The translations under genes and the position numbers were made by a program. Below, in pieces: positions 25,037 to 25,265 of a stretch of DNA of 61,647 nucleotides. The stretch's first letter is position 1, and each line of letters begins with the position of its first letter. The notes beneath the pieces were generated by a model that saw nothing but the letters and a program-made list of their open reading frames with translations, made no database searches and was not told the DNA's origin. This DNA is from Candidatus Omnitrophota bacterium (GTDB lineage Bacteria > Omnitrophota > Gorgyraeia > 2-01-FULL-45-10), in assembly GCA_026387175.1 (NCBI GenBank), contig JAPLME010000005.1:1-61647 (forward strand), written 5' to 3'.

Positions 25037-25121
25037 GCGGAGATGGTGGAACTGGCAGACACGCATGTTTGAGGGGCATGTGCCGCAAGGCTTGGGGGTT
25101 CAAATCCCCCTCTCCGCACCA
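25037..25121 (+). tRNA. tRNA-Leu (anticodon GAG), long variable arm, CCA encoded
   Basis: Acceptor GCGGAGA/TCTCCGC, anticodon loop TTGAGGG, variable arm GCCGCAAGGC, T arm GGGGG-TTCAAAT-CCCCC. Confidence 0.85.
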
Positions 25122-25265
25122 GTTATTTGACGGTAGTAAGGATTGTGGGATTTGAAGCCAATTTTCGCTGACGAATAGGAAGAAAAGGGCTATGCCCGAC
25201 AGAAAATTGGCTGGTCAGAAGGCCGCCACAGGCGGCCGGATGACCAAATCCCCCTCTCCGCACCA
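25122..25265 (+). other. tRNA-3'-end-linked structured element, copy B
   Basis: Ends with an exact 21-nt repeat of the tRNA-Leu 3' end (25245-25265 = 25101-25121). Carries the same 51-nt core as copy A. Lies 13 nt upstream of tRNA-Glu. Confidence 0.6.

Follow-up and report, generated by a model that had tools for sequence, protein, structure and literature searches.

A small element with a conserved fold at the 3' ends of tRNA genes in Candidatus Omnitrophota

Two of the four tRNA genes on a 61,647-nt contig of a Candidatus Omnitrophota bacterium (JAPLME010000005.1, assembly GCA_026387175.1; the whole of this stretch is called the window below) are each followed directly by a short structured sequence. 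The locus raises the question of what these sequences are and whether they are fitted to the tRNAs behind which they stand. A first-pass annotation of the DNA had proposed that base changes in their 5' arms compensate for the differences between the two tRNAs, arguing for a folded RNA or single-stranded DNA (ssDNA). We conclude that the two sequences (copies A and B below) represent a small, undescribed element of Omnitrophota tRNA gene ends, akin to nonautonomous hairpin elements and tRNA-targeted insertions. The fold is real, yet only one of the two copies supports a compensatory tuning to its tRNA.

All four tRNA genes lie on the forward (+) strand, were called by both ARAGORN and Rfam and encode the CCA end. 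Copy A (24163-24311, +, 149 nt) stands directly 3' of tRNA-Gln(CTG) (24089-24162, +) and copy B (25122-25265, +, 144 nt) directly 3' of tRNA-Leu(GAG) (25037-25121, +). Each terminates in an exact 21-nt direct repeat of the 3' end of its host tRNA, from C56 to A76: CAAATCCTAGCCCGTCAGCCA forms the last 21 nt of tRNA-Gln at 24142-24162 and recurs at 24291-24311, and CAAATCCCCCTCTCCGCACCA forms the last 21 nt of tRNA-Leu at 25101-25121 and recurs at 25245-25265. Because the repeat marks the end of each copy, it also fixes the coordinates given above, with native flank resuming at 24312 behind copy A and, behind copy B, leading into tRNA-Glu. The upstream tRNA gene is intact in both cases, and every copy of the element that we know has the same orientation as its tRNA. 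Copies A and B have 104 nt in common at 86% identity; 51 nt are identical (24247-24297 = 25201-25251), and the 3' part of the element is conserved while the 5' part is variable.

Comparison with relatives indicates how these sequences came to be there. The contigs compared were those bearing the glutaminyl-tRNA synthetase gene that lies upstream of tRNA-Gln, the gene that assigns the window to Candidatus Omnitrophota; percentages given with a relative are protein identities. In L119 (84%), the CCA of tRNA-Gln is joined directly to TTTTGCTTGATTTTG...GTTATAATATGAACCTCTCT (reading ...TATAAT) and that of tRNA-Leu is followed by TTATCTGAGAACTAAGGT and then by tRNA-Glu, so that neither site carries the element. 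For both A and B, the L119 flanks are homologous to the window sequence 3' of the second repeat copy. The element was likewise not seen behind tRNA-Gln in L110 (83%) or in L117 and L118 (91%). The empty sites of L119, L110 and L118, taken with the homologous flanks, indicate that copies A and B are precise insertions relative to these genomes. The insertion point is equally describable as after A76 or as between T55 and C56.

A metagenome scan added two copies, L111 (positions 1-108) and L113 (positions 1-90), bringing the total to four from three data sets. Both contain the 3' part of helix P2 and the hairpin P3 (described below) as in the window copies, joined to a tRNA end at the same C56. 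Over the aligned stretches, the identity of their cores is ~90% with copy A and 95-98% with copy B. Their contigs begin inside the element and thus lack the 5' arms. L111 continues with CGAATCCCGTTAGCCACCCCA, presumably a tRNA-His-type end with discriminator C, and L113 with CGAATCCCCATGGGGACGCCA, a tRNA-Glu-type end. The same core behind four different tRNA ends, together with the empty sites, identifies it as an insertion element whose hosts include four tRNAs or more. The left module of the element does resemble an inverted tRNA fragment, as it might if local duplications or inversions of tRNA 3' regions, or chance, had produced these sequences with no element involved. We give that account next to no credence, as it is contradicted by the presence of one 100-nt core behind four tRNA ends in three data sets.

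The fold of the element is a Y-shaped three-way junction of helices P1, P2 and P3. Copy A opens with a poorly conserved spacer (24163-24189), whose GCGG at 24182-24185 could pair with CCGT of the terminal repeat, followed by an inverted T-arm-like 5' arm, GCTAGGATTTGG (24190-24201). This arm is fully complementary to 24290-24301, a perfect 12-bp inverted repeat that makes up P1, as the first-pass annotation had stated. Its description of P1 in copy B also holds: there, GGGATTTG (25147-25154) pairs with CAAATCCC (25245-25252), at the end of a left module composed of a spacer and the arm GTGGGATTTGAA (25122-25155). P2 spans 24202-24258 in copy A, with a basal helix of 24202-24212 and 24248-24258 and a purine-rich internal loop, and 25156-25212 in copy B, with a basal helix of 25156-25166 and 25202-25212. 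This second helix, pairing AGCCAA[A/T]TTTC with GAAAATTGGCT, had been noticed earlier and is found in both copies, perfect in B and with one A/A mismatch in A. P3, the 33-nt hairpin GGTCAGAAGGCCGCCACAGGCGGCCGGATGACC, occurs exactly twice in the window and only at the two tRNA sites (24259-24291 and 25213-25245, identical in A and B), with zero occurrences expected by chance. The invariance claimed for it is borne out, although we redraw it as an outer stem of 5 bp and an inner one of 7 bp, separated by a 3x3 purine internal loop and capped by a loop of 3 nt. All 12 stem pairs are constant in the four copies, and the loop changes from ACA to TCT in L113. In copy A, the final two C of P3 also belong to the 12-bp P1, so that P1 and the outer P3 stem compete there.

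Several observations show that the structure is under conservation, as had been claimed. RNA folding compared with shuffled sequences gives z scores of -4.2 for copy A and -5.0 for copy B, and DNA folding -5.0 and -4.7, respectively. In the alignment of four copies, 97% of cells pair; sliding the partners by 1-3 columns lowers this to 22-48%. The mini-hairpin of P2 (P2b) reads GGCC-TCC-GGCC in copy A (24233-24243), GGGC-TAT-GCCC in copy B (25187-25197), GCCC-ACT-GGGC in L111 and GCCC-TCC-GGGC in L113, with compensatory changes on both sides in two of its four pairs. The element thus has a conserved structure able to fold as a single strand, and the covariation, modest with four sequences, favors a folded single strand. 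Folds of about the same quality are obtained for the minus strand as for the plus strand, and no helix of the four-copy alignment holds a strand-diagnostic G-U pair. Of the earlier proposal of a folded RNA or ssDNA, the single-strand fold therefore stands, while the G-U pairs that would distinguish strand, or RNA from DNA, are absent. Three other identities were considered for the structured region and rejected: an intrinsic terminator, as no T run follows P3; a known ribozyme or tRNA-like RNA, as there is no Rfam match; and a small protein on the minus strand, whose frame is open in all four copies but whose region covaries as a hairpin and has no homologue.

The fit of P1 to each host tRNA is a separate matter. 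In P1, six to seven pairs lie opposite A57-C62 (AAATCC), which is identical in both host tRNAs, and the T-loop together with C61-C62 is common to all six tRNA ends compared, save one base. That part of P1 therefore needs no compensation. At the tRNA-specific positions 63-66, copy A pairs at four of four and copy B at two of four, of which only G:C63 is contiguous with the helix. We measured the fit with a duplex anchored on the six universal pairs while the left part was shuffled. Copy A reaches -18.6 kcal/mol with tRNA-Gln and -10 to -11.5 kcal/mol with the five other tRNA ends (p ~0.02 with RNA parameters, 0.009 with DNA parameters). Copy B, on the other hand, gives -15.9 kcal/mol with its own tRNA-Leu, -17.3 with tRNA-Gln and -18.1 with tRNA-Glu (p ~0.27-0.32). 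The unconstrained duplex energy between the left module and the host-specific part of the repeat showed no host preference for either copy; this test was uninformative, and we rely on the anchored one. An arm that has changed to match its tRNA is accordingly upheld for A (p ~0.01-0.02) and not for B (p ~0.3), that is, for one of the two copies.

The history of the left module offers another source for the complementarity. In L123 (83%), the CCA of tRNA-Leu is followed by GTTTGACGGTAACACGAGTAGTGGGATTTGAACCCACACATTTTGTCATG and then by native flank. This segment is homologous to the spacer, arm and P2 5' strand of copy B (local alignment, p<0.0005), and the site is without the P2 3' strand, P3 and the repeat. 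Within it, AGTGGGATTTGAACCCACA is 89% complementary to the tRNA-Leu T-arm and contains a complete hairpin, GTGGG-ATTTGAA-CCCAC. Behind tRNA-Gln the same contig has ATGCGTTAGAAGATAGGATTTCAAGCGTATTT, a homologue of the left part of copy A (p ~0.0015), again with the core absent, and what is missing at either site extends as far as the CCA/flank junction. This state could be either a deletion derivative of the full element or an older layer beside which the core arrived. In L124 (84%), an inverted T-arm-like motif, GTAGGTTTTGAACCTGG, lies behind tRNA-Gln (13/17, p 0.004); by manual count it matches the CTAGG-type T-arm at 14 of 17 positions and its own CAAGG-type at 13 of 17. If so, the motif, being closer to the CTAGG type, would not have tracked the T-stem change of its tRNA-Gln. 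No such motif was found after tRNA-Glu or tRNA-Ser, nor after any tRNA of L110, L118 or L119.

Judged from these alignments, the complementarity of arm and repeat is explained by a shared origin from the T-arm, one inverted and one direct. Since both would come from the same T-arm, point compensation is unnecessary as an explanation, and the support that P1 lends to a compensatory fit is weak and partly overturned by the core-less inverted T-arm module. The first-pass remark that the 5' arm resembles an antisense T-arm agrees with this, its L123 homologue forming an inverted T-arm hairpin that is complete. That the arm is a tRNA fragment in inverted orientation is something that the same annotation had thought would speak against its case, yet the structural conservation that it expected to be missing in that event exists.

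How, then, might such an element reach the ends of tRNA genes? Our tentative reading, to which we give somewhat less than an even chance, is that A and B represent a protein-less family of small insertion elements that land exactly at tRNA gene 3' ends in Omnitrophota and are moved in trans as folded ssDNA. Each copy would consist of a variable left module with an inverted T-arm-like arm, a core formed by P2 and P3, and the last 21 nt of the host, and this terminal copy would leave the upstream tRNA gene intact. Pairing of the arm with the T-loop part of the terminal repeat would form P1 and close the three-way junction, placing the ...NCCA end beside the conserved P3. The near-universal T-loop and the CCA end would serve as landing marks recognized by base pairing, with the T-loop complement and a TGG segment positioning the ...NCCA junction next to P3. 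An enzyme acting in trans on the folded single-stranded DNA would then move the element, in a logic like that of IS200/IS605-type "peel and paste" elements or of folded attachment sites. What the sequences show is the insertion with its exact boundaries, the several tRNA hosts and the conserved fold with its covariation, whereas ssDNA in place of RNA, the enzyme, the origin of the 21-nt repeat and any guiding role of the arm are inferences. On the + strand the GC skew is positive, which would put the folding strand on the lagging-strand template.

The closest parallels are the single-strand transposons of the IS200/IS605 family and those of their derivatives that encode no protein (PATEs), with IS608 as the model. 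They are strand specific, carry hairpins near their ends and leave the target 5' of the insertion intact, and judging by the empty sites our element is inserted exactly 3' of the tRNA CCA at both sites, yet it ends in a 21-nt copy of its target. The cleavage site of IS608, 3' of the hairpin, is found by pairing with a guide that lies 5' of the hairpin foot, and insertion takes place 3' of a short target with no DNA gained or lost (PMC3201880). The element may have a comparable arrangement in TGGCT, immediately 5' of the P3 foot, with ...NCCA terminal. TGGCT pairs with AGCCA, the final 5 nt, in copy A, with GCCA in L113 (4 nt) and with only CCA in copy B and L111. The spacing differs, however: P3 is 21 nt away from the end and P2 ~35-40 nt away from the tRNA CCA, compared with 10 and 19 nt in IS608, and the 21-nt terminal segment is host specific. 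The two end hairpins of IS200/IS605 elements resemble each other, whereas P2 (AGCCAA.../...TTGGCT) and P3 (GGTCA.../...TGACC) share no sequence.

A further likeness to IS200/IS605 elements is the presence of a Y1 (REP-associated) transposase gene in the genome (30024-30608; Pfam Y1_Tnp, E 8e-14; NCBIfam NF047646, 74.7 bits against a cut-off of 80), although no transposase matching the element was identified. No other Y1 gene lies in the window, and this one has on either side inverted copies of a 23-nt repeat, GGCCATCCTGAAAAGGGACACCC, which is unrelated to P3 and has seven copies in the window (14089, 14131, 29900, 30616, 30651, 40854 and 40907, those at 14089 and 14131 forming an inverted pair). 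The gene shows only that such enzymes exist in this genome. The element shares with REP/REPIN sequences, which REP-associated tyrosine transposases (RAYT) mobilize, its short, structured, intergenic and noncoding nature and its several genomic copies. It differs in being tied to tRNA ends, and the RAYT gene of the window is flanked by GGCCATCCTGAAAAGGGACACCC and not by the element.

Among folded attachment sites, the attP of CTX phage and the attC of integrons are comparable in their unpaired central hairpin loop. An inverted target-like copy ~90 nt from the junction that pairs into a duplex replica of the target is a further point of likeness to these sites. The RYYYAAC and GTTRRRY core sites of attC are absent, however, the base of P1 being GGATTTG/CAAATCC and that of P3 GGTCA/TGACC, the target is a tRNA gene and not dif or attI, and no recombinase is known. 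The element is also unlike a classical MITE in that its inverted arms are internal, with a spacer of 27 nt (A) or 25 nt (B) before the left arm, and in that the left ends of A and B are unalike.

A number of observations weigh against movement as folded ssDNA. No transposase in the window is linked to the element, the flanks of the Y1 gene being an unrelated REP. Transposition of the IS608 type, which leaves no duplication, does not predict a host-specific 21-nt repeat, P2 and P3 are unlike each other, and the arm of copy B pairs no better with its own tRNA than with others. As left modules occur without the core in L123, arm and core may differ in their history, and some of the absences in relatives may be due to loss and not to recent gain. 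The apical part of P2 is only ~70% identical between A and B despite the 51-nt identical block, a contrast that could reflect constraint, gene conversion or subfamily structure and that would fit selection in place or gene conversion as well as it fits mobility. Finally, only two complete copies, A and B, are known.

A tRNA-targeting integrase is a natural competitor of this mechanism. The copies might be miniature integrative elements, or remnants of such elements, moved by a tyrosine integrase, in which case the 21-nt repeat would be the identity block of the attachment site, the crossover would fall in the T-loop, the element would supply a replacement tRNA 3' end and P2 and P3 would be protein-binding sites. 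A repeat from T-loop to CCA is the classical footprint of tRNA-targeting integrases, and C56-A76 in both copies has that span; as in att-site duplications the tRNA is kept functional and intact, and the tRNA genes of this clade are busy integration sites (see below). We still regard this origin as unlikely. There is no integrase among the scanned window genes, and the repeats are only ~125 nt apart. A near-identical core sits on four tRNA 3' ends, where conservative recombination would have carried along the end of the old host, and the repeat stops exactly at A76 in both complete copies. The covariation of P2b, moreover, points to a folded single strand and not to duplex binding sites.

Transcription bears on the remaining alternatives. 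Copy A sits between tRNA-Gln and a promoter-like TTGCTT-17-TATAAT. In L119 this promoter stands before tRNA-Leu, and in the window before a nucleotidyltransferase gene pair. Copy B occupies the tRNA-Leu/tRNA-Glu spacer, which is 18 nt long in L119, and ends 13 nt before tRNA-Glu(CTC) (25279-25356, +), inside the tRNA cluster as first described; tRNA-Ser(GCT) follows at 25414-25505 (+). Neither copy contains a terminator-like site, so that, given the position in a tRNA cluster, cotranscription of the element with the tRNAs is plausible and indeed likely. On the view of the first-pass annotation, the element would be a folded RNA that is cotranscribed with the tRNAs and excised by tRNA-processing enzymes, its closing helix selected for complementarity to the host. 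The placement of B between two tRNA genes and of A before the promoter-like site, the z scores in RNA folding, the fit of the A arm to tRNA-Gln and the 51-nt identity between copies whose neighboring parts differ, which suggests constraint in place, all agree with this. Set against it, Rfam yields no match up to an E value of 10, the minus strand folds equally well with no strand-diagnostic G-U pairs, the arm of B is not host specific and the L124 motif did not follow its tRNA. Close relatives with the same tRNAs lack the element, which must therefore be dispensable, and we hold an RNA function of this kind to be distinctly unlikely.

An RNA could also have been the vehicle of spread. A reverse transcriptase that copied the element RNA while switching to, or being primed by, the CCA-3' end of a mature tRNA would yield a junction at A76 and a repeat of the tRNA end. 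Both junctions do fall at the 3' end of the mature tRNA, and the element, conserved in its 3' part and variable in its 5' part, is probably transcribed. We nonetheless consider such retroposition very unlikely, there being no reverse transcriptase among the scanned genes of the window and, to our knowledge, no precedent for retroposons of this sort in bacteria. As each of the four tRNA genes in the window encodes its CCA, the junctions can equally be read at the DNA level.

Wider searches returned no further copies. The P3 pattern GGTCAGAAGGN{8,24}CCGGATGACC matched 54 loci in 185,579 species-representative genomes, all of them chance or coding matches without the element, and three scans of viral contigs (P3, inner P3 and P2) gave chance matches only. 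Plasmids and phages had no match by blastn, and the protein database had none to the translated conserved core. In Rfam 15 only the four tRNAs reached the gathering score and nothing was reported over the element at E values up to 10, and a covariance model (R1) run on all collected Omnitrophota loci recovered the four known copies only. No tRNA-His was found upstream of homologues of the L111 kinase, where synteny is not conserved. A literature search for miniature elements targeting tRNA ends found nothing pertinent.

The tRNA genes of this clade carry other insertions as well. In L117 (3400-3790) and L118 (3202-3676), an element with a GIY-YIG gene interrupts tRNA-Gln at its anticodon loop. 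It comes with a perfect duplication of 98 nt, made up of the end of a GIY-YIG reading frame and the 5' half of the tRNA. The upstream synthetase reading frame extends into the first duplication copy in these two contigs, and Logan contigs of the window's own strain break at the same tRNA-Gln position. In L123, tRNA-Leu has a 132-nt unit (8743-8902) in its 5' part; a stretch of 28 nt, AATTTTTTCGCGGAGATGGTGGAACTGG, is perfectly duplicated there, and a complete tRNA is left downstream. L119 has a 108-nt structured insertion (12130-12237) right after tRNA-Glu(CTC) that is unrelated to A and B. Its end repeats 16 nt of the tRNA end, CCCCATGGGGCTACCA, and TGGTAGC, complementary to its last 7 nt, lies within it; a similar start, TTCTGCTTCGC...GGAGCTTCGCAGG, comes after the repeat in L113. 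A hairpin element, TGTACCACTCGGGTTTGC..., stands exactly after the CCA of tRNA-Gln in L123 (7884-7989) and of tRNA-Leu in L124 (8752-8799), and in L123 its 24-nt perfect inverted repeat takes in the GCCA of the tRNA, with A and CAGCCA coming next.

In three families that are unrelated to one another, the element thus stops exactly at a copy of ...NCCA and has the complement of that copy before it. The arrangements are TGGCT-P3-...AGCCA, TGGTAGC...GCTACCA and TGGC-A-CAGCCA. We treat this pattern as a lead and not as a result, given that the matches are short and that the 7-nt one has an estimated p of ~0.06. It would be extended most boldly by supposing an Omnitrophota class of mini-elements, comprising at least three unrelated families, with the tRNA CCA end as landing site and a retargetable, nucleic-acid-guided insertion by base pairing, a proposal that we judge improbable on present comparisons. 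In such a class, the inverted T-arm-like arm and a TGGN segment would pair with the tRNA end inside a folded single strand, every element would close with a copy of the tRNA terminus, and the sequence aimed at would be the most conserved one that tRNAs have.

The surroundings of the locus have features of their own. Between tRNA-Gln and tRNA-Leu lie a nucleotidyltransferase gene (24373-24870; weak matches to Aminoglyc_resit, NTP_transf_5 and DUF6036) and an overlapping 53-codon gene (24867-25028), which may form a toxin-antitoxin-like cassette; the former is present in L110, L123 and L124 and absent in L119, and the small downstream gene is called only in L110. The place after tRNA-Ser is taken in the window by the gene for a 1387-aa protein without Pfam match (25695-29858), and a reading frame of more than 6334 codons runs off the window end (42646-61647, +). 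In a relative of L110 (ERZ1426660 contig), a large serine recombinase, DUF2924 and a BREX defense gene set are found downstream of tRNA-Glu.

If copies A and B do belong to a true mobile family, it would be a compact and protein-less one that inserts at tRNA ends without damage, its target apparently being read through pairing of bases with T-loop and CCA end. This would represent a new target logic for single-strand or site-specific transposition, and it would help to explain why tRNA loci break metagenome assemblies in the Omnitrophota.

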